DNA of 64,000 nucleotides from a virus (taxonomy: Duplodnaviria > Heunggongvirae > Uroviricota > Caudoviricetes), in IMG/VR virus record IMGVR_UViG_3300034122_001045, one strand, 5' to 3'. The notes below the pieces were generated by a model. It made no database searches. It worked only from the letters and a program-made list of their open reading frames with translations, and was not told where the DNA came from. The position numbers were made by a program, and so were the translations under genes. Positions 61 through 57,656 of the stretch are shown here, piece by piece (the first letter of the stretch is position 1; each line of letters opens with the position of its first letter).

Positions 61-68
61 TATAAATA
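61..68 (+). promoter_or_regulatory. T4-type late promoter motif TATAAATA, 27 nt upstream of the ATG at 96
   Basis: Exact TATAAATA at 61-68. The same octamer recurs upstream of the gp23, gp21 and gp18 homologs on the minus strand. Confidence 0.6.
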
Positions 69-95: not shown

Positions 96-2564
96 ATGGA
101 CGACAATAAAAAGATTGATCCAAAGAAAAAGAAGCAAAAAAGCTTTAAAGAATTTGACCCAACAAAATACATAGAAACAGAGCCAACTATGAACGAAGCT
201 GCAAGAGGTGTGGCTGTCGTTAGTTTTGGTCGTTTTAATCCAATTACAACCGGTCATGAAAAGTTAGTCAACACCGTCATGTCTGAAGCGATTAAGCGTA
301 AGGGCGAACCTGCGATCTATATGTCTCATACACAAGATCCTAAAAAGAACCCGCTATCGTACAATCAGAAGATATCTCTCGGTCAATCTGCATTTGGCAA
401 GATCGTTAAAAAGTCTACATCAAAAACACTCATAGAAGTAGCCAAAGAGCTCTCAGGAAAATATTCGGAACTCGTAATCGTTGTCGGTTCGGATCGAGTC
501 AATGAATTTGAGACTCTTATGAATAAGTATAACGGAAAAGAATACAATTTTGAGAATATATCAGTAGTATCTGCCGGAGAAAGAGATCCGGATTCTGACG
601 ATGTTTCTGGTATGTCAGCATCAAAGATGAGATCTCTTGCAGCTAAGAAGGACCTTGAAGCTTTTAAGAACGGTCTTCCAAAAAAGTTAAAATCGTCAGC
701 TAAGAAAGTGTATGACATGGTTAGAAACGGAATGAACATGACAGAAAGCACTGAAGAAGTAGTTTTAGAAGCAGCACCTCTTACTCTTGCTCAAAGACGT
801 AAACGTGGTCTTATAATGAAACGTTATAAGACAAAGATAAAGGCTGCTCGTGAGAGAGCTAAGAGAAAGATGGCGCCAAAAGAAAACCTTCTTAAGAGAG
901 CAAGAAAGCGAGCTTTAGAAGTTATTCGTGATCGCCTTATGAAGAACAAGAAGTATTCGGAAATGTCTCCTGCCGAAAAGATCAATCTAGACGCAAGACT
1001 TGCAAAAGTACCTAAGGCAGTCATTGGTCGTATTGCAGCAAAGCTTCTTCCTAAAGTTCGTGCCGCAGAAAAAGAAAGACTAAAGAATGTCCTTGCGCCT
1101 AAACAAGAATCTTTAGATACTGCGTTCGAAACTTTCTTAGAATCAAGAACCGTTAAACCGCAGGACAAAGACGTGGCACATATGCCGGGTTCGCAGCCTA
1201 AGGGATACTATGCTGGCGTTAAATCAAGTGTAAAGGATGATCGTGCTAGACACTTCGCAAAGTATTCTAAAAAGAGCGACGATGAGCAATCATCATATAA
1301 GCCAGCGCCTGGTGATAAAGGTGCTAAGACGAAGCCATCGGTTCACACAACAAAATTTAAACAGATGTTTGGCGAGTCTCTTAACGAAGCTTCACAGGCA
1401 GATACTAAGTTTCGTAAGAGACCGCATATGGCACTAGAAAAGAATGGTTCTGTTAAGTTTGATAAAAGATTTAAGATCTTTAAGAAACAGATTAACGAGA
1501 GCCACGAAGATTTTTCGTTTGAAATACTCGGTCTCATGGAAGATGTTGATAACTTTGTCATGTCTGAAGAGTACGATGTTCTTATGGAAAATAATCCAGA
1601 AGAAGCTCTCAAGAATAAAGCCGAAAAGAGCGGAATATCATACGGAATACTTAAGAAGGTGTTCGATCGTGGTGTAGCTGCTTGGAGAACTGGACACCGT
1701 CCAGGTACGACTCCAACTCAGTGGGGTCTCGCAAGAGTTAACTCGTTTGCCACAAAAGGCAAGGGTACTTGGGGTAAGGCAGACTCAGATCTTGCTGCTA
1801 AAGTAAGAAGCGAAGCAGTATCGCCAACAGCAGTTCATCCTTTTGTCCACATAAAGGACCCTGATAAAGCAGTTAAGATACCAAAGGCTCTAAAGCACAA
1901 GCTAGGTGTTGGTCTAACTCCAAAGCATATGATGATGCATGGAAGTAAAGCAATCGACTTAGATGTTGATGGCGACGTGGATAAGTTTGATAAGACTACA
2001 CCAGACGAAATCACTGGTACAGAGAAGAAGAACCTTACTCGTCAAATGCAAAAGAAGTATTCTGGAGAAGTCAAAACAGGTAAGATCGGAAACGCTTTTG
2101 AATCTGTTGACGAAGGCGTAGAACAAGCAAAGATGAAGATGAAGATCTCTCAAGAAAAGATGGCTGATGCAAGAAGGCACGATCGTATGCTTGATGCTGC
2201 AAAGCAAAGAGATAAATCTTCAAGCAAGAATCTATCTCGAGATATTCAAGAAGGTGATCCGAACCCTCATAATCGTGAGGATGGGACCGATAAGCTAGTC
2301 AAGACTTATAAGAAAGATACGCCCGGAGAGAAATCCCTTAAAGAGTTTATGCTCGCAGGATCGTTTGGCACATTCAAGAGAGGCGATAGAGTTCGTTTTA
2401 CGAAACACTCGATGGATATGTTCGACGGTCAACTACGTAAGGGTACTGTAGTAGGCGGAGACATTTCTTGGCTAAGAGTAAGAGACGACGACGGTACACT
2501 ATATAAAGTTCGCCATTACAACGCAGCTGCCGTCAATAACGACGATCCAGCCAATAAGTTTTAA
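96..2564 (+). CDS. Large lysine-rich protein (822 aa). N-terminal HIGH-motif nucleotidyltransferase domain (NMNAT/NadD/CoaD-like), followed by a ~600-aa basic low-complexity tail. Probable late, virion-packaged internal protein.
   Basis: GRFNPITTGHEKL (HxGH motif) at aa 45-58. SASKMRS (ISSTxIR-like motif) at about aa 174. Degenerate CTS-like KSFKEF at aa 15-20. Late promoter at 61-68. Paralog family with the downstream genes. Confidence 0.6.
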   Translation: MDDNKKIDPKKKKQKSFKEFDPTKYIETEPTMNEAARGVAVVSFGRFNPITTGHEKLVNTVMSEAIKRKGEPAIYMSHTQDPKKNPLSYNQKISLGQSAFGKIVKKSTSKTLIEVAKELSGKYSELVIVVGSDRVNEFETLMNKYNGKEYNFENISVVSAGERDPDSDDVSGMSASKMRSLAAKKDLEAFKNGLPKKLKSSAKKVYDMVRNGMNMTESTEEVVLEAAPLTLAQRRKRGLIMKRYKTKIKAARERAKRKMAPKENLLKRARKRALEVIRDRLMKNKKYSEMSPAEKINLDARLAKVPKAVIGRIAAKLLPKVRAAEKERLKNVLAPKQESLDTAFETFLESRTVKPQDKDVAHMPGSQPKGYYAGVKSSVKDDRARHFAKYSKKSDDEQSSYKPAPGDKGAKTKPSVHTTKFKQMFGESLNEASQADTKFRKRPHMALEKNGSVKFDKRFKIFKKQINESHEDFSFEILGLMEDVDNFVMSEEYDVLMENNPEEALKNKAEKSGISYGILKKVFDRGVAAWRTGHRPGTTPTQWGLARVNSFATKGKGTWGKADSDLAAKVRSEAVSPTAVHPFVHIKDPDKAVKIPKALKHKLGVGLTPKHMMMHGSKAIDLDVDGDVDKFDKTTPDEITGTEKKNLTRQMQKKYSGEVKTGKIGNAFESVDEGVEQAKMKMKISQEKMADARRHDRMLDAAKQRDKSSSKNLSRDIQEGDPNPHNREDGTDKLVKTYKKDTPGEKSLKEFMLAGSFGTFKRGDRVRFTKHSMDMFDGQLRKGTVVGGDISWLRVRDDDGTLYKVRHYNAAAVNNDDPANKF

Positions 2565-2573
2565 GAGGATAAA

Positions 2574-3371
2574 ATGAAATCTTTTAAGAAGTTTGTAAAA
2601 GAAGCATGCTGGACTGGATACAAGCAGGTTGGCATCAAAGAAAAGAATGGACGTAAAGTTCCTAATTGTGTTCCAGAAGAAGCTGATGTTGACGAAGCAT
2701 ATGTTCATACTGATTTTACTGATAAAACAACCCCAATGGGGAATAGAAAGGCATATGCAGCTGCAAAAGCAAATGATGAAAAGAAACCAGTTTCTTTAAA
2801 AAAGGCTCCTTGGGATAAGAAGAACGAAGAAGTTCAACTAGATGAAGTATCCGATAAGAAGCTAGATGTGTATCGTCAGAAGGCATTTGCGGATCAACCA
2901 TCTGGTGACGATGGTTCTGACAAGTATCGTAAGCGCAAGTTTGGTCGTGACCTAGCATTCGCTAAACAAACTGGTAGAGCTAAAGTTCTTGCTACAAAGG
3001 AATCTGTCGAAGAGCTTGATGAGCTTTCACCGAACACGCTTTCTTCTTATGCAAGTAAAGCTAACATAGACGCGTCAAAAGCTAGAAGTCATATGAGAGT
3101 TTCCGCTGGTGGAAAAGATTTTGCTACTCATAAGAAAAGATACGATAAGAGAACCGCCGGTGCTGTGAGGGCAGGAGAAAAGTATCGCAAGTTAGTAGCC
3201 AGAGAAGAAATCAAACTTGATGAAGCTTCAGATCTTCGCATCACCAAGGTCTACAATAAGTTTCCTAAGAAAGCGACCTATGCAGTTCACTCACCAGATC
3301 GCAAGTACTACAAAGAGTTTGACTCAATGGAAAAAGCAAAAGCTCATCACGCAGAAAAGACAGGTAAGTAA
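2574..3371 (+). CDS. Lysine-rich putative internal (capsid-targeted) protein
   Basis: N-terminus MKSFKKFVKE matches the T4 IP capsid-targeting sequence pattern (MKTYQEFIAE) with VxE at positions 8-10. Contains one copy of the EELDELS..TLSSYASKA repeat found in the 4326 gene. Confidence 0.6.
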   Translation: MKSFKKFVKEACWTGYKQVGIKEKNGRKVPNCVPEEADVDEAYVHTDFTDKTTPMGNRKAYAAAKANDEKKPVSLKKAPWDKKNEEVQLDEVSDKKLDVYRQKAFADQPSGDDGSDKYRKRKFGRDLAFAKQTGRAKVLATKESVEELDELSPNTLSSYASKANIDASKARSHMRVSAGGKDFATHKKRYDKRTAGAVRAGEKYRKLVAREEIKLDEASDLRITKVYNKFPKKATYAVHSPDRKYYKEFDSMEKAKAHHAEKTGK

Positions 3372-3372
3372 A

Positions 3373-3651
3373 ATGAAATCTTTTAAGGAATTCGTAGAAC
3401 ATCCAAACTGCGGAACGCCAGACTGCTGCGGACAATGCAGCACCGTCTCGGAAGCCGAGTCTTGGGAAGCAGGATACAAGCGTCGTGTCGTAAAGACTAC
3501 GAGTGCTGAGCATAAAGAAAAGGGAATGAACTGGCGCATCAAGGGTAAAGAGCGCCCAGAGATCTCAATCAAGCTCTATAAAGAAAAGCCATCACAGGCA
3601 GAGTTCAATAAGCAGATGCGTCGAGTCGCCGGCCACGAGTTTGGTGGATAA
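3373..3651 (+). CDS. Small putative internal protein with CTS-like N-terminus (MKSFKEFVEH)
   Basis: Internal start at 3373, with RBS AGGTAAGTAAA and ATG 1 nt after the upstream stop. Cys-rich (CGTPDCCGQC). The longer ORF 3217-3651 overlaps the upstream gene and was rejected. Confidence 0.5.
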   Translation: MKSFKEFVEHPNCGTPDCCGQCSTVSEAESWEAGYKRRVVKTTSAEHKEKGMNWRIKGKERPEISIKLYKEKPSQAEFNKQMRRVAGHEFGG

Positions 3652-3944
3652 TGATTCGTTTTAGTCAATACATCTCAGAAGCATATTTTGTTCAATATGT
3701 CCGTGATAAAGATATTGACGTATTAAAGTTGCGTGATACCAATCAAAGAGGCTGGGTTGAGGTTCGCGGTAAAAAGAACTATGAAGTTACATATGATAAG
3801 AACGATCCTATGCACAAAGCTATCGACGGTTTAGGCAAGGCAGCAAGTATATCAGATCTGATGAATGGTGATGTAGTAAGTATCAATCCTCATCATCCTC
3901 ATGGTAAAAAAGCAATCGAAAACATCCAAAGGTTAATGAAATGA
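3651..3944 (+). CDS. Small putative internal protein with CTS-like N-terminus (MIRFSQYISE)
   Basis: TAATG overlap with the upstream gene. IxE at positions 8-10. Confidence 0.45.
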   Translation: MIRFSQYISEAYFVQYVRDKDIDVLKLRDTNQRGWVEVRGKKNYEVTYDKNDPMHKAIDGLGKAASISDLMNGDVVSINPHHPHGKKAIENIQRLMK

Positions 3945-4249
3945 AGACGTTTAAGCAGTTTCTCGAAGAAAAGGATCCTCGTATCGAGAGAGCAGGAGTT
4001 GCCGGTTTCAATAAGCCAAAGGCGACTCCTAGTCATCCAGAAAAGAGTCACATAGTCGTTGCAAAGTCCGGCGATCAAGTAAAGACGATCCGCTTTGGAC
4101 AGCAAGGAGCCGAGACTGCGGGTGATCCTAAGGAAGGCGAATCCGAAAGAATGAAGATGAAGAGAAAGTCTTTCAAAGCTCGTCACGGTAAGAATATCGC
4201 TAAGGGAAAAATGTCGGCTGCTTATTGGGCCGATAAAGTTAAGTGGTAA
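3941..4249 (+). CDS. Small basic putative internal protein, CTS-like N-terminus (MKTFKQFLEE)
   Basis: ATGA overlap with the upstream gene. LxE at positions 8-10. Lysine-rich. Confidence 0.55.
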   Translation: MKTFKQFLEEKDPRIERAGVAGFNKPKATPSHPEKSHIVVAKSGDQVKTIRFGQQGAETAGDPKEGESERMKMKRKSFKARHGKNIAKGKMSAAYWADKVKW

Positions 4250-4252
4250 CTA

Positions 4253-4260
4253 CTTTTATA
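4253..4260 (+). promoter_or_regulatory. T4-type late promoter motif TATAAATA upstream of the 711-aa repeat protein gene
   Basis: Exact octamer, about 66 nt upstream of the ATG at 4326. Confidence 0.5.
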
Positions 4261-4325
4261 AATAAAGTAAGTAGATCTAGTATCAGCAATTCATGTTAGG
4301 CAATCAATTTCTAAGGACAGAATAA

Positions 4326-6461
4326 ATGAAGAGATTCAAATCTTATATTAACGAATCAGTTGAGCTCGATGAGTCAATCACGAAAATGTCTGATGCTCGT
4401 CTCAAGTTTCACGTTTTGAAAAATGTACCACATGGTAGCTATACCAAAAAAGAGCTATCGGCAGAACACGATCGTCGTAGAAAGACCCAAGGGCCTGCAT
4501 ATATGGCCGTAAAACCTTCACTCAACGAAGAAAATATTGATGAAGCAGTAAATGCTAAAAAGATTGCTGCAGATCATGACGCTGGTCATTCGATTGACGT
4601 TATTGTCCAAAAGCATCTCAATAAAAAGGGTGATAACAAGGATGAGATTCTAAAAGCTATTCAAGCTCACCGCTGGAATAAGCGTATGAAGAAAGAAGAA
4701 GCTGAACTTGACGAAGTTTCACAGGAGACGCTCCGTAATTATCACGCGAAGGCTGCTCTCGATTTAAGAAAGAAAAGAGAAAAACTTGATAAGGGTACTC
4801 TGACCTCTAAAGATTATAAGCAGGGACAAAACCGCGTAACTGGTTTGAATAGAGCTGCCAATAAAATGGAAGAAGTTGAACTTGATGAAGCTCGTAAGAG
4901 CGACTCATATCAATTTACTCACAAACCAGGCGATGCTGAATCTGAAAAAAGATTAGCCGACCTTAAAAAGTCAGTAAAAGGTACTGGTAAGCGTGTTGTA
5001 CTACAAGGTCGTTTGGGTAAAGACAATCCTAACGCACATAAGTATTCTAAGGATGCACCTAGTGCGAAATACAAAGACGGCAAGCGCGTAAATAGTGACG
5101 TTTCAGGAAAATCAGGTGGCCATTCTCATCAGCGCATTCAAAAAGCAGATGCAGCCCATCACGACGTATATGTCTACGACCGTAATGAGTCTGTTGAACT
5201 TGATGAAATTTCAAAAGCCACTTTACGTAAAGTGGGAGGCCAAATGCTACGTAAAGGCCTTTCAGACGACCCAAAAGCAGATAAGCACATGAAGTATGCA
5301 AATCTAGCGTCTGCAAAACTTTATCCTAACCAATATAAAAATTCTCCTCTAAAAGCGAAAGTTAACGCTACAGAAGAAGTCGAGTCCCTCGACGAACTTT
5401 CAAAGAAGACTCTTGGTTCATACGTGAAAAAAGCTGCTGGTGATGCTGTTACTAAAGCTTATAGAGCAGGTGACGTTCGAGATAAAGATAGTGGTAAGAA
5501 TTACATGAAAGCCCTAGGAAGACAGATTGGTATTTCTACAGCAACTAGTAAACTTGCGAAAGAAGAAGTTGAACTTGATGAAGTTTCGACCGCAACTTTG
5601 CAAAGATATAAATCTGCGGCAAGTAAAGCCATGGATCGTGCATCAGACTCAGCAATTGATAAAATGCTAGGCAGTAAGGATTCTCAGTCTGTAGACATTT
5701 CAAAAGAAAAAAAGACTATGGACAAGCGTAGCAAGGGAGTATCCCTCGCTTCAAATAAACTAGCTAAAGAAGAATTCGAACAGATCGACGAACTTTCAAA
5801 GAAGACCCTTGGTTCATATGTTAAGAAAGCCTCACGCAATCTAGCTGGAAGAGAATATAAGCGTGGAGCCGAAAAAGATACAAGCACGTCAAATCTCCAA
5901 AAATCCTATAAAAGAGATATGGGCATCGCTAAAGCAGTTGATAAACTAACTAAAGAAGAAGTTGAAAATCTTGATGAACTCAAGAAATCAACCCTCGGTT
6001 CATATGTGAAGAAGGCTGCTGGTAGTATGGCTGGTAAAACTGCTGTTGCTGCTGCACAAGCCTCATCCTCAATGGGAAAATCTTCGCCAGATATAAAGCG
6101 TGGTATAGTTAACCGTATGAAGGGTATTACTAGAGCTACTGATAAACTCGCAAAAGAAGAAGCAGATCTCGAAGAAAAACTGGTTGGCGGTCAAAAGAAG
6201 TTGGATCACAACAAGAACGGTAAAATCGACTCGCATGATTTTCATCTTATGAGAAAAAAGAAGATGAAGGAAGAAGTTGAAGGTCTTGACGAGATCTCTC
6301 GCGACCTAGCTCGTCGTTACATCCGTAAAATTGCTGATAAGACGAACACCGGAGAACTATCCGTCAAGCAAGTTGAGAAGCGTAGACCTGGTCTAAATCT
6401 TGCTGGTAAGAAAGCATACCCTTCGATCGCTGGTGAACCAAAGGTTCGTGCTACAGATTAA
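4326..6461 (+). CDS. 711-aa lysine-rich repeat protein, putative internal (capsid-targeted) protein
   Basis: N-terminus MKRFKSYINE (IxE at positions 8-10). At least 8 degenerate tandem repeats of the form EEVE(L/N/S)LDE(L/V/I)SKxTLGSYVKKAAG, spaced about 50-70 aa apart. Confidence 0.65.
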   Translation: MKRFKSYINESVELDESITKMSDARLKFHVLKNVPHGSYTKKELSAEHDRRRKTQGPAYMAVKPSLNEENIDEAVNAKKIAADHDAGHSIDVIVQKHLNKKGDNKDEILKAIQAHRWNKRMKKEEAELDEVSQETLRNYHAKAALDLRKKREKLDKGTLTSKDYKQGQNRVTGLNRAANKMEEVELDEARKSDSYQFTHKPGDAESEKRLADLKKSVKGTGKRVVLQGRLGKDNPNAHKYSKDAPSAKYKDGKRVNSDVSGKSGGHSHQRIQKADAAHHDVYVYDRNESVELDEISKATLRKVGGQMLRKGLSDDPKADKHMKYANLASAKLYPNQYKNSPLKAKVNATEEVESLDELSKKTLGSYVKKAAGDAVTKAYRAGDVRDKDSGKNYMKALGRQIGISTATSKLAKEEVELDEVSTATLQRYKSAASKAMDRASDSAIDKMLGSKDSQSVDISKEKKTMDKRSKGVSLASNKLAKEEFEQIDELSKKTLGSYVKKASRNLAGREYKRGAEKDTSTSNLQKSYKRDMGIAKAVDKLTKEEVENLDELKKSTLGSYVKKAAGSMAGKTAVAAAQASSSMGKSSPDIKRGIVNRMKGITRATDKLAKEEADLEEKLVGGQKKLDHNKNGKIDSHDFHLMRKKKMKEEVEGLDEISRDLARRYIRKIADKTNTGELSVKQVEKRRPGLNLAGKKAYPSIAGEPKVRATD

Positions 6462-6626
6462 GTTGAATAGTCAGGTGTTTCGTAGAGTAATAGAAGTACT
6501 GAACGGAAAATGGATCGAAGATGTCATAAATAACTTCGATCCATACGGAATAAAAGAACAGACTGATATTGAGTTAAATAAAAAACATCATGAAAAAACA
6601 AAACTCAATAATAAGGAGAAAATAAA

Positions 6627-7250
6627 ATGAGTTTATGGGGAAAAACAGATACGCTAGCTTCGGTGCCTAAGTGGCTCAATGCTAACGATCCAAACAAGTC
6701 CAACGACCTAGACAACGCATTCTTCGTTGACCTAACAGAAGCAGCAGTTGCTTCAAACATAGCAAAAGGCCTAGGTACTCCTGGCTGGAACCTTTATCAT
6801 ACATACGTCGATGGAACTGGAAATACACGTCACAAAGCTGAACCGCTTATCGTGATGAAGGTAACAGCTGCAGCCGCAGGCGACCTAGGTATTAGCGGTA
6901 ACACTAATATTGAAGATACTACTGTACCTGACACTATCATTGCGATTACAGTACAACCAGCTAGCGTTTCACGAGTTGCACCTAACACTGCAACATTTAC
7001 TGTTACCGCAACAGCGACACCTACCGCAACACTTACTTACCAGTGGCAGATTCAGCAATCTAACGAATCTGGAACTACATGGACTAACGTAGGTACGAAC
7101 GCCGCTAGCTATACCACAGGTGTAACTGCAGTGGCACCAGGATCTGGCGCAACTAACGGCGATAAGTATCGTGTACTTGTTTCAGCACCAAATAATACAC
7201 CTACTGTTGTAACATCTTCTACCGCAGTACTAACGGTAACTGCATCATAA
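6627..7250 (+). CDS. Ig-like domain protein, probable virion decoration or surface protein
   Basis: C-terminal half is T/S/A-rich beta-strand-like (TYQWQIQQSNESGTTWTNVGTNAASYTT, typical of I-set/Big domains). Strong RBS AAGGAGAAAATAAAATG. Confidence 0.45.
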   Translation: MSLWGKTDTLASVPKWLNANDPNKSNDLDNAFFVDLTEAAVASNIAKGLGTPGWNLYHTYVDGTGNTRHKAEPLIVMKVTAAAAGDLGISGNTNIEDTTVPDTIIAITVQPASVSRVAPNTATFTVTATATPTATLTYQWQIQQSNESGTTWTNVGTNAASYTTGVTAVAPGSGATNGDKYRVLVSAPNNTPTVVTSSTAVLTVTAS

Positions 7251-7256
7251 TTTGAA

Positions 7257-7631
7257 ATGAAACTAGGAGAATCAACCTTTCTTCTCTACGCTGCAAAACA
7301 CTATGATAATCCGCATTGTTCAGACATAGCAGAGTTTGAGGAAGACCTAAAAAGATTTCAGTACTTACGAAAGCTTTTTAGTAGATATAAGCAGACAGGA
7401 GATCTTAAGGAAAGGTTGATTCTCAATCATCTTATCATTCTGTATAATTGTTTTGGTGTAGATGCTACGAACATGCTCTTTATGAAGCTAGAAGAGTATC
7501 ATAAATACTTAAAACCGTTTGTTGAATACTTAAACTTCATGCCCGCTTTCATAGAGTATGAAAATAAAAAGATACACAACAACCATATCGAATCCGATAG
7601 AACAATTGAAGAAACTCTTAAAGGCATCTAA
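7257..7631 (+). CDS. hypothetical protein
   Basis: 124-aa ORF, in series with its neighbours. Confidence 0.4.
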   Translation: MKLGESTFLLYAAKHYDNPHCSDIAEFEEDLKRFQYLRKLFSRYKQTGDLKERLILNHLIILYNCFGVDATNMLFMKLEEYHKYLKPFVEYLNFMPAFIEYENKKIHNNHIESDRTIEETLKGI

Positions 7632-7633
7632 CA

Positions 7634-8188
7634 ATGGTCGTAGATCTTTTCCTTGTATATAGCTTTATTCGTAGACTTACAACTCCATTTGAAAAATGGG
7701 AAGCGTATGCACAAGGCGTAATCGATAAAGATGGAAATATTCTAAAGAAGAAAAAAGAAAGAAACACTAGAGGTGAAAAAGATTCCTTTGGTATATTCGA
7801 TCTTATGGTGCTAAAGCTTAAGAAGCTTCTTGCAAAGATCCCAGGTGGTTCCACTCGTCTTGCTTCATACACTGCTGCGTTGTGGCTCATAAAAGAGTGG
7901 AACCATTTTTCCGAGGATTCTTTACTCACTGAGTCTATCACCGATGAGCAACTCGATGAATCTCTAGATTTATTTTTTAGCAGATATTGCTATTATATCG
8001 GTATAGAAGAAGATGTCAAGGAAAAAATGATAGAAGAACCGACAGTAAATGTCGGGTCTGGTAACATAGCTGGTCTCGGTGTTGGACCGCAGGGCGAACC
8101 TGGATTAACACCTTCGCAGATGAAGAAGTATAAAAAGAAGAACCCCGGTCCTAAGAGACTTAGAGATATAATAGGAGCAAACACATGA
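7634..8188 (+). CDS. hypothetical protein
   Basis: 184-aa ORF, ATGA-coupled to the endolysin gene. Confidence 0.4.
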   Translation: MVVDLFLVYSFIRRLTTPFEKWEAYAQGVIDKDGNILKKKKERNTRGEKDSFGIFDLMVLKLKKLLAKIPGGSTRLASYTAALWLIKEWNHFSEDSLLTESITDEQLDESLDLFFSRYCYYIGIEEDVKEKMIEEPTVNVGSGNIAGLGVGPQGEPGLTPSQMKKYKKKNPGPKRLRDIIGANT

Positions 8189-9078
8189 TTACATTAGAAC
8201 AGTTCAGCGCAATGATACCGAAGAATAAAGAAGCTAAAGAATGGTATGATGTAGCTATCGACATGTTTGAAAAGTATGAAATCACAACACCACTTCGCAT
8301 TGCGGCTTTCATGGCACAGTGTGCTCACGAGTCAGCTGACTTTACAATGCTTGAAGAGAACCTTAACTATCGTGAAGAAACTCTTCTCAAGGTATTCCCA
8401 CGCTACTTCGGAGCTGGAAAGCGCAATGCAGCTGAGTATGCAAAGAACCCAGAGAAGATTGCGAACTACGTCTATATGGACGAGTTTAGAAGTAAGCAGG
8501 GTGCTATGGGAAATACTCAAGCAGGAGATGGTTGGAGATTCCGTGGTCGCGGAGTTAAGCAGTTAACTGGACGTAATAACTACACCGCATTCGCAAAGAC
8601 TGTTAACATGACCGCAGAACAGGCATCAGCTTATCTTGACACAAAGAAAGGTGCTCTTGAGTCCGCATGCTGGTTCTGGAAAACGAACAACATCGCTAAG
8701 TTTGCAGATGCAGACGACATTGTTGGAATGACTAAGAAAATCAATGGTGGAACGATTGGTCTTGAAGATCGTACTACTCGTTATACAAAAGCGAAAGCAC
8801 TACTTGGCGGTAAGGTTTCTGCACCTCCTGTTACTGAGCAAGCAAAACCAGCGTCGGCAGCAAAACCAGCGGCCGCTGCTCCTAAGGCTGCCCAGAGAAC
8901 TCTCACGAGAGGGATGAAGGGCGACGATGTTAAAAGAATGCAGCAAGCTCTCGGAATTGCCGCAGACGGTGACTTTGGTTTTGGAACTGCCGGCGCACTC
9001 AAGAAGTGGCAGCGAGAGAATGGATTAGAAGCCGACGGTGTCGCTGGGCCAGCGACTCTAGCAAAGCTACTCAAATAA
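8185..9078 (+). CDS. Endolysin: glycoside hydrolase family 19-like lysozyme domain plus C-terminal peptidoglycan-binding domain
   Basis: RIAAFMAQCAHESADF...LEENLNY is a GH19 catalytic signature. The C-terminus LTRGMKGDDVKRMQQALGIAADGDFGFGTAGALKKWQRENGLEADGVAGPATLAKL is a PG_binding_1 repeat. An Ala/Pro linker separates the domains. Confidence 0.8.
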   Translation: MITLEQFSAMIPKNKEAKEWYDVAIDMFEKYEITTPLRIAAFMAQCAHESADFTMLEENLNYREETLLKVFPRYFGAGKRNAAEYAKNPEKIANYVYMDEFRSKQGAMGNTQAGDGWRFRGRGVKQLTGRNNYTAFAKTVNMTAEQASAYLDTKKGALESACWFWKTNNIAKFADADDIVGMTKKINGGTIGLEDRTTRYTKAKALLGGKVSAPPVTEQAKPASAAKPAAAAPKAAQRTLTRGMKGDDVKRMQQALGIAADGDFGFGTAGALKKWQRENGLEADGVAGPATLAKLLK

Positions 9079-9118
9079 TAAATAGTAGGTTAGAAACCTA
9101 ATAGAAAAGGAGACAAAA

Positions 9119-9325
9119 ATGTCTGTTACTGATATTATAAAGCATTCAGTTGATAAAAATCCTCTAGCGATGAAGGAAGCTCTAGAAGCAGAGCTTGCAG
9201 CACGTATTCGTCTTGCTCTCGAAGCAAAGATGTCTGATGACGAAGAAGACGAAGATGAAGAAGAGGAAGATGAAGACGAAGACGAAGACGAAGAAGATGA
9301 GGACGAAGACGAAGCCAAAAAATAA
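9119..9325 (+). CDS. Small protein with a ~30-residue poly-Asp/Glu tail
   Basis: 68 aa, ending DDEEDEDEEEEDEDEDEDEEDEDEDEAKK. A GAA/GAC codon run. The reverse-strand poly-Ser ORF is its mirror image. Confidence 0.5.
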   Translation: MSVTDIIKHSVDKNPLAMKEALEAELAARIRLALEAKMSDDEEDEDEEEEDEDEDEDEEDEDEDEAKK

Positions 9326-9901
9326 ATGAAGATCTATATCATCATAGCAATGTTTATGGCGGCTTCTATGGTAAGTGGAGGCGTATACTATTATTACACC
9401 TCCACGCAAGCCAAGATAGAGCAGCTTACTCAATATAACGCCACTCTTATGGCGAATGTTGAACAGATGGAACAAGTGAACAAACAGAACATCGCTACGA
9501 TTAATAATCTTCAGGCTGGTTATCAGCAGGCACAGGAGAACTTTGCTGCGCTTCAGAATAACTTTACGGAAATACGTCGTCAGAATAACGAATTGAGAGA
9601 CAGACTCGGAAAGCACGAGTTGGATGTCCTCGCAGCTGCAAAACCGGGTTTGGTTGAAAAGATACTAAACAGCGCAGCTGAAAAAGCAATGAGATGTTTT
9701 GAACTTGAGTCTGGATCGGTTCTAACAGACAAAGAAAAGGAAGCAAAGAATGCAAGAGCGTTTAACAGCGAGTGTCCTTGGATTTATGATCGTCTTGTCG
9801 CTAGCGGCATGCTCACGCCCAGCGCCAGTGGAACCACCACCGAAGATAATAACGGAGACACAAATAGTGAAACCTCCGAAACCGTCGGTTCCAACCCCTG
9901 A
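9326..9901 (+). CDS. Putative i-spanin (type II membrane protein with periplasmic coiled coil)
   Basis: N-terminal TM IYIIIAMFMAASMVSGGVYYYY, then a Q/N-rich heptad coiled coil. Lies immediately downstream of the endolysin and overlaps the lipoprotein gene. Confidence 0.55.
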   Translation: MKIYIIIAMFMAASMVSGGVYYYYTSTQAKIEQLTQYNATLMANVEQMEQVNKQNIATINNLQAGYQQAQENFAALQNNFTEIRRQNNELRDRLGKHELDVLAAAKPGLVEKILNSAAEKAMRCFELESGSVLTDKEKEAKNARAFNSECPWIYDRLVASGMLTPSASGTTTEDNNGDTNSETSETVGSNP

Positions 9902-26986: not shown

Positions 26987-27952
26987 ATGAAAGCTTTACT
27001 ATCAGCGGCGGCAATTATTGCTTTGGCGTCCACGACTGCGTTTGCAAGAGATAACGTTCAAGTAACAGGATCGTCTACAGTACTACCATATGCAACCATT
27101 GTCGCAGAGGCATTTGGTGAAAATTTTGATTTTCCGTCGCCAGTAGTTGAAGGTGGTGGTTCGGGTGCAGGCCGTAAGAAGCTCTGCGAAGGTGTTGGTG
27201 AAAACACTGTTGACATCGCAAATAGTTCTTCAAAGATGAAGGATGAAGAAAGAGCCAAGTGTGAAGAAGCAATTGGTGAAGTGACTGAGGTTCGTATTGG
27301 TTATGACGGTATCGTGTTTGCATCGAACATCGATCAACTTAATATCGATAATCTAACAGTCGAACAACTCTATAGCGCTCTACACGAGTCGAGCACTGCA
27401 AAACTCTGGAGTGAAGTCGACTCGACTCTTCCAGAAGTAGCAATCCTTGCATACATTCCAGGTACCAAACACGGCACTCGTGAAGTGTTCGATGTAAAGG
27501 TGATGGAAGAAGGTTGTAAAGCAGCTCTCGGTGTTGAGAAACTCGATGACGATCAAAAGAAAGCTTGTGTGAAAGTAAGAACTGACGGTGCAGCAGTTGA
27601 CATCGATGGCGACTACACAGAAACACTTGCTCGTCTTGATGCTAATAAAACATCGCTAGGTGTGTTTGGTCTTAGCTTCTATCAGAACAACACTGATAAA
27701 CTAGAAGTTGCCACGGTAAGTGGCGTGGCACCAAGCGTAGAAACCATCTCAAGCGGTGACTATCCAATCAGCCGTCCACTTTACTTCTACGTGAAGAACG
27801 CTCACCTCAGCGTCATTCCTGGTCTGAAGGAATACATCGAGTTCTTCGTGAGTGATGAGATGGCAGGTCCTGATGGCGCTCTTGCACAGTATGGATTGGT
27901 TCCAGATCCAGAACTTGCAGCTACTCAGGCTGAAGTTTCTGCTCTTAAATAA
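26987..27952 (+). CDS. pstS: Periplasmic phosphate-binding protein PstS (auxiliary metabolic gene)
   Basis: Signal peptide. VTGSSTVLPYATIVAEAF is the PstS family N-terminal signature. 321 aa. Confidence 0.85.
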   Translation: MKALLSAAAIIALASTTAFARDNVQVTGSSTVLPYATIVAEAFGENFDFPSPVVEGGGSGAGRKKLCEGVGENTVDIANSSSKMKDEERAKCEEAIGEVTEVRIGYDGIVFASNIDQLNIDNLTVEQLYSALHESSTAKLWSEVDSTLPEVAILAYIPGTKHGTREVFDVKVMEEGCKAALGVEKLDDDQKKACVKVRTDGAAVDIDGDYTETLARLDANKTSLGVFGLSFYQNNTDKLEVATVSGVAPSVETISSGDYPISRPLYFYVKNAHLSVIPGLKEYIEFFVSDEMAGPDGALAQYGLVPDPELAATQAEVSALK

Positions 27953-27954
27953 GA

Positions 27955-28725
27955 ATGAAATATAAAAGCATCTTCATAAGTGATGTGCATTTAGGAACCA
28001 GAGGGTGTCAAGCAGACGCCCTCTGTGTTTTCTTAAAAAACAACACAAGCGAAAACCTATTCCTAGTTGGTGATATGCTGGATGGTTGGCGCTTAAAGAA
28101 ACGTTGGTACTTTCCACAGAGTCATGCCAATGTGATACGCAGAATACTCACGGCAGCTAAGCGTGGCACTAGAGTAGAATACATATTAGGTAATCACGAT
28201 GAAGCAGGCCGTAAGTTTTTAAACTTTGATATCAGCTTCGGTAATATTAAAGTAACTAACAGACAAGACTACATAGGTTTAGACGGCAAACGTTATCTGG
28301 TTATTCATGGTGACTTCTTTGACGTATTGATGCATGATAAAAAATGGTTGATGCACATTGGAGATACTTTGTATGACGCTATGATATATGCCAATGTTCA
28401 GTTTAATCGAGTAAGAAGTTTGTTTGGTATGGACTATTGGAGTTTAAGTAAATATCTAAAACAGAATACTAAACACGCGTTAAACTTTATCAATCGTTAC
28501 GAAGAACATCTAGCTGCCTATTGTAAGCAACATGGATATGACGGAATAATTTGTGGTCACATTCATCATGCTGAAATAAAAGAAATAAATGGTGTTATAT
28601 ACATGAACGATGGCGACTGGGTCGAGAGTGCCACCGCTCTGGTAGAACACTTTGATGGAAGATGGGAGATAGTGCATTATGCCGAAGATCTTAATAGTTA
28701 CAGACAACTTACCGAATCAGATTAA
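27955..28725 (+). CDS. Metallophosphoesterase (LpxH-like / phosphodiesterase)
   Basis: ISDVHLG, GDMLDGW, GNHDE, IHGDFFD and GHIHH motifs. Confidence 0.65.
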   Translation: MKYKSIFISDVHLGTRGCQADALCVFLKNNTSENLFLVGDMLDGWRLKKRWYFPQSHANVIRRILTAAKRGTRVEYILGNHDEAGRKFLNFDISFGNIKVTNRQDYIGLDGKRYLVIHGDFFDVLMHDKKWLMHIGDTLYDAMIYANVQFNRVRSLFGMDYWSLSKYLKQNTKHALNFINRYEEHLAAYCKQHGYDGIICGHIHHAEIKEINGVIYMNDGDWVESATALVEHFDGRWEIVHYAEDLNSYRQLTESD

Positions 28726-29686
28726 TGGTGTGGTTACGACCTACAAAAATATTGAGACGTATGCGATTCGCGACGGTTATACTGTTGATTATATTCATCC
28801 CGGGATGTACGGCCATATTGATTGCCCAAAGTACAATGAAGTTAAGCTTGCCTGGGCACCTCCTTGGGTTGTTGGGAAAGAGATCAAGAAGATTGATCCG
28901 GATTATATACACATCGCCACAGAAGGTCCTATGGGTATGTCTGCTAGAAGGTATCTTGCAATACGTGGGATTAAGTACAATACTGCTTACCATACTAAGT
29001 TTCCTGAAGGTGTAAGGACGTTACTAGGAATTCCTGAAGGAATTACTTGGGCAGTTGTGCGCTGGTTCCATAAGAATAGCAATAAGGTACTCACTACGAC
29101 AAAATCAATGGTCGATGAACTTCATGCGCATGGATTTAATAACAATGTTATTCATTGGACTCGAGGAGTTGATAGGGATATATTCAAACCGGCAGTGAAA
29201 GAACCATGCTCGCACATTAACCTCGTTTGCGTGAGTCGAGTAAGCAAAGAAAAAAATCTGGAAGCTTTTCTTGAGATAAACTACCCCAATGCAGTTAAAA
29301 CTATCGTAGGCGATGGTCCTATGTTAGAAACATACAAGAAGCAATATCCTTACGTGAACTTTGTAGGTGCCAAACGTGGTGCTGAACTCGCGCATTATTA
29401 TCAACAGGCTGATGTTTTTGTGTTTCCTAGTCGTTGGGATACATTTGGATTGGTGATGATTGAGGCAATGGCATGCGGTACTCCGGTCGCTGCTTATCCT
29501 GTGCAAGGACCATTAGACGTAATAGATCAAGATGTAACTGGTTATATGGATGAGGATATCACTATCGCTATTAAAAAATCTCTTGACCTCGATAGAGAAT
29601 CAGTATACAAATTCAGCATGAAATGGGATTGGGGAAACGCTTGGAACATTTTTCGAGACAATCTTATAAACTGTAAAACTAACTAG
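28679..29686 (+). CDS. Glycosyltransferase family 4 (GT-B fold)
   Basis: C-terminal E-x7-E motif, FGLVMIEAMACGTPV. Confidence 0.7.
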   Translation: MPKILIVTDNLPNQINGVVTTYKNIETYAIRDGYTVDYIHPGMYGHIDCPKYNEVKLAWAPPWVVGKEIKKIDPDYIHIATEGPMGMSARRYLAIRGIKYNTAYHTKFPEGVRTLLGIPEGITWAVVRWFHKNSNKVLTTTKSMVDELHAHGFNNNVIHWTRGVDRDIFKPAVKEPCSHINLVCVSRVSKEKNLEAFLEINYPNAVKTIVGDGPMLETYKKQYPYVNFVGAKRGAELAHYYQQADVFVFPSRWDTFGLVMIEAMACGTPVAAYPVQGPLDVIDQDVTGYMDEDITIAIKKSLDLDRESVYKFSMKWDWGNAWNIFRDNLINCKTN

Positions 29687-29696
29687 AGGATAAACC

Positions 29697-30455
29697 ATGA
29701 TTGTACTATTAGGATACGGCTTCGTTGGTAAAGCTCACTATAAAGCGTTTAGCCCTCATCACGAAATGTCTATCGTAGATCCGGCCTTCAGCAATATTCG
29801 TATCAAAGACATAGAAAACATTAGTGGTGCTATCGTCTGTGTTTCGACTCCATCATCTGAAGATGGAAGCTGTGATATGAGCATAATCTATAATGTAATT
29901 CAAGACATTCCAAAAGAAGCTCCAATTCTCATTAAGAGCACGATATCGATGGAGGGATGGGAAACTCTCGAAAGAAACTTTCCTGAACACTCCATCACAT
30001 TTAGTCCAGAATTTCTTCGAGCTGCAAGCGCAGACGACGACCTTAAGAACCTCACTCATGCGTTCTTGGCTGGCGGTAACGTTCAATACTGGTTAGATTT
30101 TTACACGACGGTGTATCCAGACATCAGCATAACTGTATGTAAGCCAAAGCACGCAATTGCCATCAAGTATTTTCGAAACTCGTTTCTTGCGGCAAAGTGT
30201 AGCTTCTTCAACGAGATCTACGATTTCTGTGAAACGCTCGGATTGGATTACGAGTCGGTTCGCTCTGGTGTCACGTTAGACTCTCGTATCGGTGAGAGCC
30301 ATACTTTTGTAAATGAGAACGATAGAGGCTGGGGCGGAGCGTGTTTTCCAAAGGATACCGCGGCGATTCTGCAGACGGCAAAGAACTCAGGCGTCGAGCT
30401 ACAGACGCTAGAAGCTGCCGTAAAATATAATGAGTCTGTTCGAAAAAAAGTTTAA
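29697..30455 (+). CDS. Nucleotide-sugar dehydrogenase (UDP-glucose/GDP-mannose dehydrogenase family), short form
   Basis: N-terminal Rossmann GYGFVGKA. Catalytic-Cys motif GGACFPKDTAAI. Only 252 aa, so no C-terminal UDP-binding domain. Confidence 0.55.
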   Translation: MIVLLGYGFVGKAHYKAFSPHHEMSIVDPAFSNIRIKDIENISGAIVCVSTPSSEDGSCDMSIIYNVIQDIPKEAPILIKSTISMEGWETLERNFPEHSITFSPEFLRAASADDDLKNLTHAFLAGGNVQYWLDFYTTVYPDISITVCKPKHAIAIKYFRNSFLAAKCSFFNEIYDFCETLGLDYESVRSGVTLDSRIGESHTFVNENDRGWGGACFPKDTAAILQTAKNSGVELQTLEAAVKYNESVRKKV

Positions 30456-40097: not shown

Positions 40098-40925
40098 TTG
40101 AAGAGATTACTGTACCAGTTTCACGTCGACTTTAAAGATAGAAGTAAGAATGTTTTCGGCGAAAGCTTTGATCGAGTTTCGGTTGGAGAATACTGGAAAC
40201 ATAGCACAACTTTTGCAAAAGCATACTGTGAGAGATATGGTATCGACTATAAGTTTGAGTTCCTAAGTGAAGAGGAATATAAACCTTGGGCATTTGGCGT
40301 TGAGACCTTTGATAAGTATAGAGCAGTTCAACATCTAAAGGATTACGATCAGGTTCTATACGTAGACACCGACGTGATCATACACCAAAATGCCGATAAC
40401 ATCTTTGAAGAATTTATGCATAGCGGACTCGTCGGTTACTTTGATAATGTCGCTGATAGATATATTCATAGGGATAGCAGCTCGCTCGGAAAGATAAATT
40501 CTGGTGTCATACTGTTTAATAACACAAATAGAAATTTAAAGAACGGACATGGAAAACTATATAACATGGATATATTTTCTGGTAACTATCCATGCAGAGG
40601 AACTCCATCTGAAACTCATATACTTGAGAAATTTTCAAAGGGCAAATGGTGGGAGCATTGGGAAGAAAAGCATTCTGAAAACGTAATTTATCTAAAGAAC
40701 AAAACAGCTTCAGATGAAAATTTCTTTCACTACATTGTGAACTTATATACTCTACTTCCATTCCATATCGGAAGAAAGTATAACTATCGCAGAAAATTTA
40801 GCGAAAAGCCATTCTTTAGAAGTGGATCGGAAATGATTGAGGTGTCTCCAAGCTTTATTCATTATGAAGGCGCATCTAAAAAACTAATTTATAAAGACTT
40901 CGAAGAAGGTTTATTTTTTAAATGA
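40098..40925 (+). CDS. Putative nucleotide-diphospho-sugar glycosyltransferase (GT-A, GT8-like)
   Basis: DxD-containing LYVDTDVII. Confidence 0.35.
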   Translation: MKRLLYQFHVDFKDRSKNVFGESFDRVSVGEYWKHSTTFAKAYCERYGIDYKFEFLSEEEYKPWAFGVETFDKYRAVQHLKDYDQVLYVDTDVIIHQNADNIFEEFMHSGLVGYFDNVADRYIHRDSSSLGKINSGVILFNNTNRNLKNGHGKLYNMDIFSGNYPCRGTPSETHILEKFSKGKWWEHWEEKHSENVIYLKNKTASDENFFHYIVNLYTLLPFHIGRKYNYRRKFSEKPFFRSGSEMIEVSPSFIHYEGASKKLIYKDFEEGLFFK

Positions 40926-41857
40926 AAAGAGTTCTTGTAACTGGTGCAGCAGGATTTATTGGAGCTTCACTATCCGCTCGTCTTCGCGATTGCGGTTACG
41001 AGATAATTGGTATTGACAACTATTGTGATTACTATCCAGCTACACTTAAGGTGGATAGAGTTAAGCATTTTCGCTTGCCTCCAGTACACCTAGTAGATAT
41101 CATTCATAAAGAAGCTCTATCTCGCTTTATTAAGAGTGCGAAGCCAGACATTGTTGTACACCTAGCAGCGATGGCGGGTGTAAGATATTCTATGAAGAAC
41201 CCTGGTATCTACCATAAGGTAAACATAGACGGAACTCAAAACGTTATTGATGCGTGCAAAGAAAACGGCATAGAAAAAGTCGTCTATGCATCTACTTCTA
41301 GCGTCTGCGCTGGAATCGAACAACTTCCATGGAGAGAAGACGAACCGGTTCTTCATCAGATAAGTCCGTATGGATACACTAAGTTTGTTAATGAATGCCA
41401 GTTTAAGATGTCTGGCCTGAACGACATCGGTCTTCGTTTCTTCACAGTATATGGACCTTGGGGTAGACCCGACATGGCTCTCTATGACTTCACAAAGAAC
41501 ATTCTCAATCGTGAAAAGATAAAGCTGTATAACTATGGAAACATGAAGCGCGATTTCACGTACATTGATGATATCGTGAAAGGTGTTCAGATAGTGATGG
41601 AAAACGACAGTATTCCTTCGAACGAGATCTTTAACATAGGTAACACTCAGCAAGTCACTCTTAAACGTTTCGTAGAAGCAATCGAAACGGCGACTGGAAA
41701 GAAAGCTGATATTGAGTATATCGAACACCAAGCAGGCGATTGTCTTGAGACTCAGTCTGACGTATCAAAACTTGTAAAGTATGGTTATCAACCTTCAGTC
41801 AATATCGAAGAAGGTGTTGCTTCATTCGTTGATTGGTACACTTCATATCATAAGTAG
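40922..41857 (+). CDS. NAD-dependent nucleotide-sugar epimerase/dehydratase (extended SDR)
   Basis: VLVTGAAGFIGASL. The YxxxK motif within YGYTK. Confidence 0.8.
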   Translation: MKRVLVTGAAGFIGASLSARLRDCGYEIIGIDNYCDYYPATLKVDRVKHFRLPPVHLVDIIHKEALSRFIKSAKPDIVVHLAAMAGVRYSMKNPGIYHKVNIDGTQNVIDACKENGIEKVVYASTSSVCAGIEQLPWREDEPVLHQISPYGYTKFVNECQFKMSGLNDIGLRFFTVYGPWGRPDMALYDFTKNILNREKIKLYNYGNMKRDFTYIDDIVKGVQIVMENDSIPSNEIFNIGNTQQVTLKRFVEAIETATGKKADIEYIEHQAGDCLETQSDVSKLVKYGYQPSVNIEEGVASFVDWYTSYHK

Positions 41858-56696: not shown

Positions 56697-56707
56697 ATTT
56701 ATAAAAC

Positions 56708-57413: not shown

Positions 57414-57656
57414 TTAGTACTTATATGAAACTGGAGTGCAACGAAGAGTAGTGGTGCCAGCGATTGTTTCGGTTGGCAGCTTTTCCACAATTTCAACAGT
57501 TCCCTGATGCATCGTAAACGTAGTATTTGCGTGTGCTTCAGTTACAATAGTAACTACAGAATTTGCTGCGGCATAGATACGAACGAGTTTTGCATCGTAT
57601 ACTGTGTTTGCAGTCGTGAATGAAATTTCTACATCAGTAGGTTTGATTATCATCAT
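57414..57656 (-). CDS. Small head-module protein (gp67/gp68 position)
   Basis: 80 aa. Its position between the portal and the protease is as in T4. Confidence 0.4.
   Translation of the reverse strand: MMIIKPTDVEISFTTANTVYDAKLVRIYAAANSVVTIVTEAHANTTFTMHQGTVEIVEKLPTETIAGTTTLRCTPVSYKY

Follow-up and report, generated by a model that had tools for sequence, protein, structure and literature searches.

A late-promoter-headed gene cluster with T4-type capsid-targeting N-termini, probably encoding head-internal proteins, in an uncultured T4-like phage

The 64,000-nucleotide stretch of viral DNA analysed here (IMG/VR record IMGVR_UViG_3300034122_001045; hereafter the window) comes from an uncultured T4-like aquatic myophage that is only distantly T4-like. 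Positions 96-6461 hold a tandem cluster of genes whose products are probably head-internal proteins, loaded through a short N-terminal tag that resembles the capsid targeting sequence (CTS) of T4 internal proteins. We count six open reading frames (ORFs) in this interval, all on the plus strand, where the original prediction had counted seven. Genes are named below by their lowest coordinate, and an arrow within a sequence marks a predicted cut.

61-68, plus strand: late promoter TATAAATA, T4-type, 28 nt upstream of gene 96
96-2564, plus strand: gene 96, 822 amino acids (aa), isoelectric point (pI) 9.8, basic multidomain protein
2574-3371, plus strand: gene 2574, 265 aa; CTS MKSFKKFVKE
3373-3651, plus strand: gene 3373, 92 aa; CTS-like start MKSFKEFVEH
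3651-3944, plus strand: gene 3651, 97 aa; CTS MIRFSQYISE↓A
3941-4249, plus strand: gene 3941, 102 aa; CTS MKTFKQFLEE
4257-4264, plus strand: second TATAAATA late promoter, 61 nt upstream of gene 4326
4326-6461, plus strand: gene 4326, 711 aa; CTS MKRFKSYINE↓SVELDE↓

Two exact late promoters had been proposed; the first lies at 61-68 as described, and the second is at 4257-4264 rather than at 4253-4260. The window contains nine copies of TATAAATA against 2.8 +/- 1.5 in shuffled sequences, a count of nine being reached in 0 of 100 shuffles. All copies checked (61, 4257 and five on the minus strand) are located in front of, and directed toward, genes, and the five minus-strand boxes front the gp21, gp22, gp23, 377-aa and sheath genes. 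The promoter at 61-68 probably drives the tightly packed genes 96 to 3941, and the promoter consensus suggests late expression of both transcription units of the cluster. The tight junctions, read earlier as translational coupling, are confirmed, with TAATG at 3651 and ATGA at 3941; the gap between 3371 and 3373 is 1 nt and that between 2564 and 2574 is 9 nt. The products are also as strongly basic as had been stated, with computed pI values of 9.1-10.1 and lysine contents of 10-18%.

The T4 CTS reads MKTYQEFIAE (PMC8442874). Amber-suppression work on T4 IPIII assigned residues 4 and 7 to targeting and residues 8 and 10 to processing, Asp at position 10 stopping cleavage with targeting unaffected, and gp21 cleaves after the Glu of L/I-x-E (PMC9026906). 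The cluster consensus, M-K/I-S/T-F-K-x-F/Y-I/L/V-x-E, retains all four of these critical positions. Phe4 and Phe or Tyr7 are found in genes 2574, 3373, 3651, 3941 and 4326, and residues 8-10 are I-S-E in gene 3651, L-E-E in 3941, I-N-E in 4326, V-K-E in 2574 and V-E-H in 3373. A further tagged gene in the window, 57653, has I-S-E at residues 8-10 with Leu4 and Ile7, and gene 96 has M-N-E34, the first of these three residues being L or I in 35 of 56 homologues. The T4-like N-termini proposed earlier are seen at five gene starts, with two departures from the motif as it was first written: gene 3373 has His rather than Glu at position 10 (Glu is at 9), and residue 2 of gene 3651 is Ile. Gene 96 carries the motif internally, as KSFKEFDPTKYIE at residues 15-27 of a 34-residue leader, and not at its N-terminus. 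By analogy with T4, the gene 3373 product with its His10 may be targeted but left uncut.

The likeness to T4 IPI, IPII and IPIII comprises the 10-residue tag with aromatic residues at 4 and 7, an aliphatic residue at 8 and Glu at 10, the basic Lys-rich products of late genes, the unrelated and fast-changing bodies behind a conserved tag, and the presence of a gp21-type protease and a gp22 scaffold in the genome. The differences are that the bodies have no sequence similarity to those of T4, that position 4 is always Phe here and Tyr in T4, that the cargo here includes large multidomain enzymes and repetitive polyproteins, and that it is known from sequence alone. Searches of PHROG, Pfam and NCBIfam gave no match of the cluster proteins to the T4 IPI/IPII/IPIII or Alt families. 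Judged from these comparisons, the cluster proteins are analogues that appear to use the T4 loading system, not homologues of T4 internal proteins or Alt.

The tag is specific to these genes. Within the window, the pattern M[KI]xFxx[FY][VLI]xE occurs at cluster gene starts only. A six-frame scan with M[KIR]x[FY]xx[FY][VLIM]xx returned the five cluster starts and one out-of-frame ORF of 21 codons, which is not a gene, and a relaxed pattern requiring Glu10 returned four cluster starts plus the gene at 58786 on the minus strand (MKTLRQIISE). When the window was taken together with 122 related or annotated loci (L numbers below), 41 tag matches were obtained, all on the coding strand, and four permuted control patterns gave zero matches; the tag begins at the first ATG of the open frame in 34 of 37 distinct motif-bearing sequences. 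A signal peptide or membrane anchor is ruled out, the tag having no hydrophobic stretch.

These data bear on the possibility that the conserved start is a nucleotide-level element (an initiation context or a recombination cassette) or a trace of paralogue ancestry, in front of ordinary cytoplasmic late proteins. The first 40 nt including the TAAAATG junction are indeed repeated at the DNA level among genes 2574, 3373 and 3941 (62-79%), and such a repeat could drive recombination. However, codons differ synonymously between the tag copies (AAA/AAG, TTT/TTC, and different codons at positions 3, 8 and 9) with the residues fixed, which indicates that selection acts on the tag peptide. Moreover, the bodies behind the tag are unrelated, permuted patterns gave no match against 41 real ones, the conserved positions are exactly the functional ones of T4, and tag presence tracks virion detection in cyanophage S-CREM2 (see below). 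We consider a purely nucleotide-level or ancestral origin extremely improbable.

The machinery on which such a tag would depend is encoded on the minus strand of the window, within a T4-type head and tail module that includes tail tube and sheath.

54343-55653, minus strand: gp23-type major capsid protein, the capsid protein of the window
55710-56696, minus strand: gp22-type scaffold protein (phrog_237, E 2e-69), with 15 [LI]xE sites
56708-57382, minus strand: gp21-type prohead protease (phrog_207, E 1.7e-72), real start MKLITETIEE
57653-58786, minus strand: 377-aa protein in the portal/protease interval, start MKTLRQIISE
58783-60450, minus strand: gp20-type portal protein
58821-58828, minus strand: late promoter of the 377-aa gene

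The capsid protein shares about 66% identity with its counterparts in Sinorhizobium phiM12-like phages, Methylophilales phage Melnitz, Stenotrophomonas phage DLP_6 and cyanomyophages, and it carries LLQE60↓T, which we take to be the counterpart of the T4 gp23 maturation cut. By analogy with T4, the gp21-type protease (56708-57382) is the enzyme expected to cut after L/I-x-E, and the gp22-type scaffold is the presumed docking partner of the tag. Gene 57653-58786 stands where gp67/gp68 are found in T4, is preceded by a late promoter of its own, starts with the tag MKTLRQIISE and belongs to the same tagged class as the six cluster genes. In the scaffold gene (55710-56696, minus strand), the longest ORF opens with an ATG that overlaps the late promoter box at 56696-56703 (minus strand); translation probably begins 13 codons further on, at an ATG with a good ribosome-binding site (MSGLDEQ...).

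Published virion proteomes provide an independent view of tagged proteins. Mass spectrometry of S-CREM2 virions identified 52 proteins, including six termed "non-structural", and its authors were undecided between cargo and contaminants (PMC10665884); the kinases, a SAM (S-adenosylmethionine) hydrolase and cytidylyltransferases of cyanophage virion proteomes raised this same question. We took the N-termini of the S-CREM2 proteins from the genome record.

gp6, SAM hydrolase, in virions: MKDFDSFLEE
gp14, kinase, in virions: (V)KRFDAFLTEE
gp154, cytidylyltransferase, in virions: MKNFSSFLTE
gp13, in virions: MKDLHSFLTE
gp12 (L121 4205-6814), in virions: LRFASFMAE↓A preceded by a 16-residue extension, much as in gene 96
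gp5, 7, 8, 9, 10, 11 and 16, not detected in virions: without tag

In S-CREM2 gp12 and in gene 96 (96-197), a tag-like element follows a basic N-terminal extension of 14-16 residues, and the two may represent a second, extended form of the signal. The Ser/Thr kinase g130 of S-CRM01 (821 aa) starts with MISFDQFLSE, and a passage of the S-CREM2 paper reports a kinase in S-CRM01 virions (PMC10665884). The T4-GC190 cytidylyltransferase cluster is flagged with proteomic data (Sullivan 2010 supplement). The presence of the tag on a clearly cytoplasmic enzyme had been named as a refutation of packaging. This does not apply to gene 96, because its nucleotidyltransferase family has been detected in cyanophage virions; taking the nucleotidyltransferase as disproof was rejected on the grounds that the orthologous cluster has virion proteomic data and that T4 Alt is itself a packaged enzyme. 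A review has already suggested that the tag lets T4-like phages load diverse proteins (PMC9026906). In full-text searches, whose coverage of subscription journals is thin, no paper was found that links the CTS to cyanophages or marine T4-like phages.

In cyanomyophages the syntenic counterpart of the cluster locus lies between gp41/MazG and gp61; it contains the "cytidylyltransferase" (T4-GC190) together with variable hypothetical genes, a "head protein" gene and a DUF7207 gene. The S-ShM2 cytidylyltransferase starts with MKKFSTFISE and that of S-CRM01 with MKLFNQFFKE. The closest metagenomic relatives at the locus, L003 (gene 96 75% identical) and L005 (64%), carry in the same interval five or six tagged genes with partly different bodies, including a P-loop kinase-like one; the gene 3651 orthologue in L003 starts with MLKFSEYISE. 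An IMG/VR scan with the back-translated tag yielded at least 128 matches. Among the matches listed, 122 of 128 stand at the beginning of ORFs of 50 aa or more and 113 coincide with the first ATG; 75 of 120 loci contain homologues of the window's T4-like hallmark genes (sheath 24, protease 14, capsid 12), and many unrelated bodies stand behind the tag. By sequence pattern, T4-like phages from the environment widely carry the tag on unrelated bodies. A second dense internal-protein cluster is present in L195 (IMGVR_UViG_3300025288_000189, 4800-9420), where five tagged genes (MKTFKQFI.E or MKSFKSFINE) follow one another on a single strand over about 3 kb.

Many T4-like phages encode a ligase-like protein with a KxDG motif (T4-GC71) immediately upstream of the nucleotidyltransferase. 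It carries the tag in some phages (MINFNSFITEDKGGKNLHLEHIED; DLP_6 MMKFTQFLAE) and lacks it in S-PM2 and HTVC008M, which in sequence terms is natural gain or loss of putative packaging in one enzyme family. If present in the source phage, the ligase-like gene would lie just beyond the left edge of the window. Its loci are the following.

L012, L013, L015, L016, L032, L072, L098, L127, L171 and L186: ligase-like loci
DLP_6 (L119 4083-5318), S-PM2 (L118 3770-4348) and HTVC008M (L001 4229-5461): ligase-like loci in named phages

The body of gene 3941 (residues ~22-102) is common in marine podo- and siphophages, where the first ~20 residues, and with them the tag, are missing. It is also fused inside "minor head protein and DNA pilot" proteins (phrog_220), and in Celeribacter phage P12053L it closes the structural operon.

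Sequence and published proteomes together support the core of the original prediction, namely an expanded internal-protein locus with T4-type capsid-targeting N-termini, because the T4-critical positions are kept, gp20, gp21, gp22 and gp23 counterparts are present in the window, and the tag tracks virion detection in S-CREM2. The same conclusion is favoured by the tag on the portal/protease-interval gene and by the different bodies behind the tag in syntenic loci.

The largest product, that of gene 96, is composed of several domains (plus strand; residues of the 822-aa protein).

96-197 (residues 1-34): leader, probable propeptide, disordered; K-rich stretch, KSFKEFDPTKYIE, then TMNE↓A
residues 37-212: HIGH-superfamily nucleotidyltransferase domain, a confident Rossmann domain in the AlphaFold2 (AF2) model
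residues 231-333: K/R-rich helical domain
residues 501-573: DUF5824
residues 756-812: Tudor/SH3-like small beta C-terminal domain

The leader conserved in the gene 96 family consists of a K-rich stretch and FKEFDPxKYIxxEPx[LIM]xE↓A, with P30 and E34 invariant in 56 homologues, and the Rossmann fold begins with its first strand immediately behind it; residues 1-34 are, from this conservation, a probable propeptide. Gene 96 belongs to phrog_3041 (E 9.8e-94) and matches PF01467 just above the cut-off; a search for members of its family gave more than 5800 matches. Residues G45, R46, P49, T51, G53, H54, S174, K177 and R179 are invariant. The invariant TxGH and SxSxxR motifs make it probable that the enzyme is active; its substrate is not readable from the fold, which is closest to phosphopantetheine adenylyltransferase (PPAT), NadD and FAD synthetase (template modelling score 0.64-0.68 on the target). 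The name NMNAT/NaMNAT was rejected, the NCBIfam matches being sub-threshold and the NMNAT names in databases automatic. A sequence search of gene 96 against the PDB found nothing, and the C-terminal domain has a weak Tudor domain match.

Between the domains, [LIVM]xE is conserved in low-confidence linkers at E34 (51 of 56 homologues), E217 (43/56), E225 (46/56), E468 (46/56), E498 (39/56) and E750 (35/56). Stand-alone DUF5824 proteins (82-89 aa) carry the tag, their Glu10 lying four or five residues before ALKKKAEKSG, the same offset as that of E498 in gene 96. HD/HD_4 or zeta-toxin/AAA_33 kinase domains are found on the same DUF5824 chassis (P0032, P0095, P0105), which suggests that enzyme heads are swapped on a common delivery scaffold in this family.

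Genes 4326 and 2574 have a different, bead-like design. Gene 4326 comprises 11 basic modules of 39-106 aa (mostly 55-70 aa, pI 8.3-10.5), with [LI][DE]E at residues 16, 73, 130, 188, 294, 357, 419, 489, 551, 617 and 656, each preceded by an acidic run (EEVE-LDE); it has 13 [LI]xE sites where 5.9 are expected. Gene 2574 consists of the CTS, a CWxGY...NCVP mini-module and modules split by VDE41, LDE91, LDE150 and LDE217. In 120 of the 1710 homologues found, on which the family-wide linker statistics are based, there are 838 [LI][DE]E sites against 104 expected, with a spacing peak at 60-69 aa, and the linker logo reads (K/E)-E-(E/V)-(E/V)-(E/Q)-L-D-E↓(L/A/I/V)-S-K-K-T-L. This 8-fold excess and the sharp spacing rule out chance occurrence.

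Copies of linker-bounded modules, 80-95% identical, occur in different genes, the head-core gene among them: module 92-150 of gene 2574 is also present in L003, L098 and L099, and modules 74-130 and 657-711 of gene 4326 in L098, L084 and L102. The linker is a 30-nt DNA repeat in nine copies, and the tag-coding starts are repeated too, so it is plausible that both repeats serve as recombination joints. The body of gene 3373 is tagged in this window; in L005 an EEAELDE linker precedes it, and in L003 it forms a fusion with the CWxGY module in front of it. Since the same body (that of gene 3373, or DUF5824) is found after either a tag or a linker, we infer cleavage at linkers as well, although we hold it to be about an even chance. 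The 711-aa and 265-aa proteins are probably cleavable polyproteins, not giant single effectors, as far as their sequences allow this to be read.

A CWxGY(K/R)QVGxKxKxGxxVPNCVP module is encoded at 2604-2696 (plus strand), at L003 12062-12140 and L005 14653-14730, and in L143 and L226. It stands directly after the tag in several phages, and the C-terminal regions of a number of function-unknown PHROG families match it as well. The two Cys residues conserved in this module point to a disulfide or a metal-binding site. An EF-hand-like loop, DHNKNGKIDSHDF, spans residues 627-639 of the gene 4326 product.

The module exchange extends to the 377-aa gene. Its counterparts in relatives encode 444-858 aa and contain modules that are located in genes 4326 and 2574 here. 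In the closest relative, L103, whose head genes are 87-92% identical, the portal/protease-interval gene encodes 771 aa, made up of the ends of the window's 377-aa protein together with gene 4326 and gene 2574 modules; identity to gene 4326 is 81-83% over single modules, and their order is different. Residues 106-135 of the 57653-58786 product form a conserved module, MDPVGKEDxDIDNDGDTDKSDKYLHxRRKAIGKA, also present in L084, L091 and L102 proteins. This looks like a dockerin/EF-hand-type calcium-binding loop, and one homologue of the module has a precomputed PF00404 dockerin match.

The main rival is an assembly role, chiefly for genes 4326, 2574 and 57653. The products would be prohead core or scaffold accessory proteins like T4 gp67, gp68 and gp22, directed to the core and cut at L/I-x-E sites, whose fragments leave before DNA packaging; nothing would be delivered to the host, and the locus would serve head assembly or size control only. 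Modules in common with a gene located as gp67/gp68 are in T4, multiple cleavage sites per protein, which are a hallmark of the cleared T4 core proteins, and the helical low-confidence AF2 model of gene 4326 (mean pLDDT 53, with dips at linkers), which resembles scaffold proteins, are consistent with this role. However, the modules are basic (pI 8.3-10.5) like the T4 internal proteins that are retained, unlike scaffold with its expelled fragments, and a locus that is hypervariable between close relatives whose head genes are 87-92% identical fits accessory cargo better. The tag is also found on enzymes with intact catalytic motifs, and tagged enzymes are present in mature S-CREM2 virions. We argue against the assembly role and regard it as improbable.

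The known core proteins offer the same mixed comparison. T4 gp22, gp67 and gp68 are cut by gp21 at many L/I-x-E sites, and gp67/gp68 share the position between portal and protease with gene 57653-58786, but the modules here are basic rather than acidic and have a stereotyped linker, a spacing of about 60 aa and cassette exchange between genes. According to one review, cyanomyophages lack gp67 and gp68.

The strongest claim of the original prediction was that the products are injected anti-defence or host-takeover effectors, with the 822-aa and 711-aa proteins acting as whole molecules. The two lengths are confirmed, and the large size has a precedent in Alt. T4 also provides functional precedents, in that IPI* blocks GmrSD and Alt ADP-ribosylates RNA polymerase; in relatives the tag is found on a SAM hydrolase, on kinases and on a ligase-like enzyme, the enzyme head of the gene 96 family is swapped for HD or a zeta-toxin-like kinase, and the locus is hypervariable. 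On the other hand, Pfam, PHROGs and NCBIfam gave no match to a known anti-defence protein or to such a function, the repetitive 711-aa protein looks made for cutting up rather than for acting as one enzyme, and the nucleotidyltransferase fold does not disclose a substrate. Whole-molecule effectors do not fit the 711-aa protein, which looks cleavable, and we consider this form of the claim unlikely. A specific anti-defence or takeover function of at least one product is doubtful to the same degree.

We propose instead the following mechanism. The N-terminal tag, M-K/I-x-F-x-x-F/Y-I/L/V-x-E, would dock each product on the gp22 scaffold core during prohead building, and the gp21-type protease would then cut after the Glu of L/I(V)-x-E, freeing the body inside the head, where the Lys-rich products would stay with the DNA. 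The 711-aa and 265-aa strings of ~50-106-aa modules (mostly ~60 aa) would be cut at EEVE-LDE linkers into small internal peptides. From the 822-aa protein, the leader would be removed and L/I-x-E boundaries cut, with release of the nucleotidyltransferase and three other domains. The DNA repeats that encode linkers and tags would act as recombination points moving modules between genes and phages.

Taken as a whole, a hypervariable locus of tag-loaded head-internal proteins processed by a gp21-type protease is the probable reading of the sequence. Its parts differ in strength: prohead targeting of the tagged products is highly probable, and ejection into the host, by analogy with T4, is evenly poised. 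Cleavage at tag, linkers and domain boundaries is suggested by motif conservation and by the equivalence of tag and linker, while basic charge and the T4 precedent point to head retention and ejection.

Several observations weigh against this reading. Val8 in gene 2574 and His10 in gene 3373 depart from the T4 processing rule, and the P1' residue after linkers is often L, I or V. The linkers could be structural helix junctions or repeated scaffold-binding elements, and the low-confidence AF2 model of gene 4326 cannot settle their role. The S-CREM2 authors warn that abundant soluble proteins may co-purify with virions (PMC10665884). Genes 4326 and 57653 are almost without close homologues in cultured phages (tblastn, few short matches). 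Finally, both cleavage and ejection are steps that we infer for this phage.

A more far-reaching version is a combinatorial arsenal, in which ~60-residue basic mini-proteins are loaded as a string, cut at linkers and injected with the DNA. We offer it tentatively, as a possibility on the unlikely side. If true, the released peptides would be similar in size to mature T4 IPI*; peptide cassettes and swapped nucleotidyltransferase, kinase, HD, ligase-like and SAM hydrolase domains would make up a modular delivery chassis, and the aquatic-phage proteins that enter the host would be readable directly from sequence.

Among known systems, T4 Alt is a large enzyme that is loaded in the prohead core, trimmed by gp21 N-terminally (7 residues) and C-terminally, and ejected with the DNA; it sets the precedent for gene 96 as well as for the cyanophage kinases and SAM hydrolase that bear the tag. 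Gene 96 differs from it in being a HIGH-motif nucleotidyltransferase, in having its tag embedded in a 34-residue leader and in having several conserved internal L/I-x-E sites between domains. The inner-body and ejection proteins of giant phages (phiKZ-like phages and SPN3US) are comparable as numerous head-internal proteins that a gp21-related protease cleaves behind the Glu of a short S/A-x-E motif, with propeptides as targeting signals and several sites per protein. However, their propeptides exceed 100 residues, they have no shared 10-mer, their cleavage motif is another one, and a regular bead-like repeat architecture is not reported there. The Dar system of phage P1 (DarB, 250 kDa) also packs large enzymes into the head by an N-terminal signal and delivers them to block restriction, but it belongs to an unrelated phage lineage and has no consensus tag, and L/I-x-E protease cleavage of its signal is not described.

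The mechanism itself is textbook T4. What appears to be new is the clear use of the tag in distant aquatic T4-like phages on large enzymes, its capacity to explain otherwise unexplained virion proteome matches, and the bead-and-linker polyproteins with cassette mobility. In marine phages it is not settled which proteins accompany the DNA into the cell, and a sequence-readable tag that separates virion-detected S-CREM2 proteins from their undetected neighbours would allow prediction for thousands of uncultured T4-like phages. The bead-and-linker design suggests a way of packaging many small peptides from one gene and of shuffling them, and the set of tag and linker would serve for loading foreign proteins into non-coli T4-like capsids.

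The remaining window genes are in keeping with a T4-like phage, including endolysin, spanin, gp61 primase, dihydrofolate reductase (DHFR), thymidylate synthase, ribonucleotide reductase, Dda helicase, DNA ligase and RNA ligase. A blastn search with the first 8 kb of the window found no close genome at the DNA level among cultured phages. No tRNA genes were found in the window, and scans for sigma-70 promoters and intrinsic terminators were not above shuffles.

The next gene after the cluster (6627-7250, plus strand) has neither the tag nor an upstream TATAAATA box; it matches the "head protein" family phrog_613, and the Thr/Ala-rich C-terminal half of its product reads as an immunoglobulin-like decoration domain. 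In mid-window, glycosyltransferase, UDP-glucose dehydrogenase-like and nucleotide-sugar epimerase genes are encoded at 26987-30455 and 40098-41857 (plus strand), and these could be involved in DNA or surface sugar modification.

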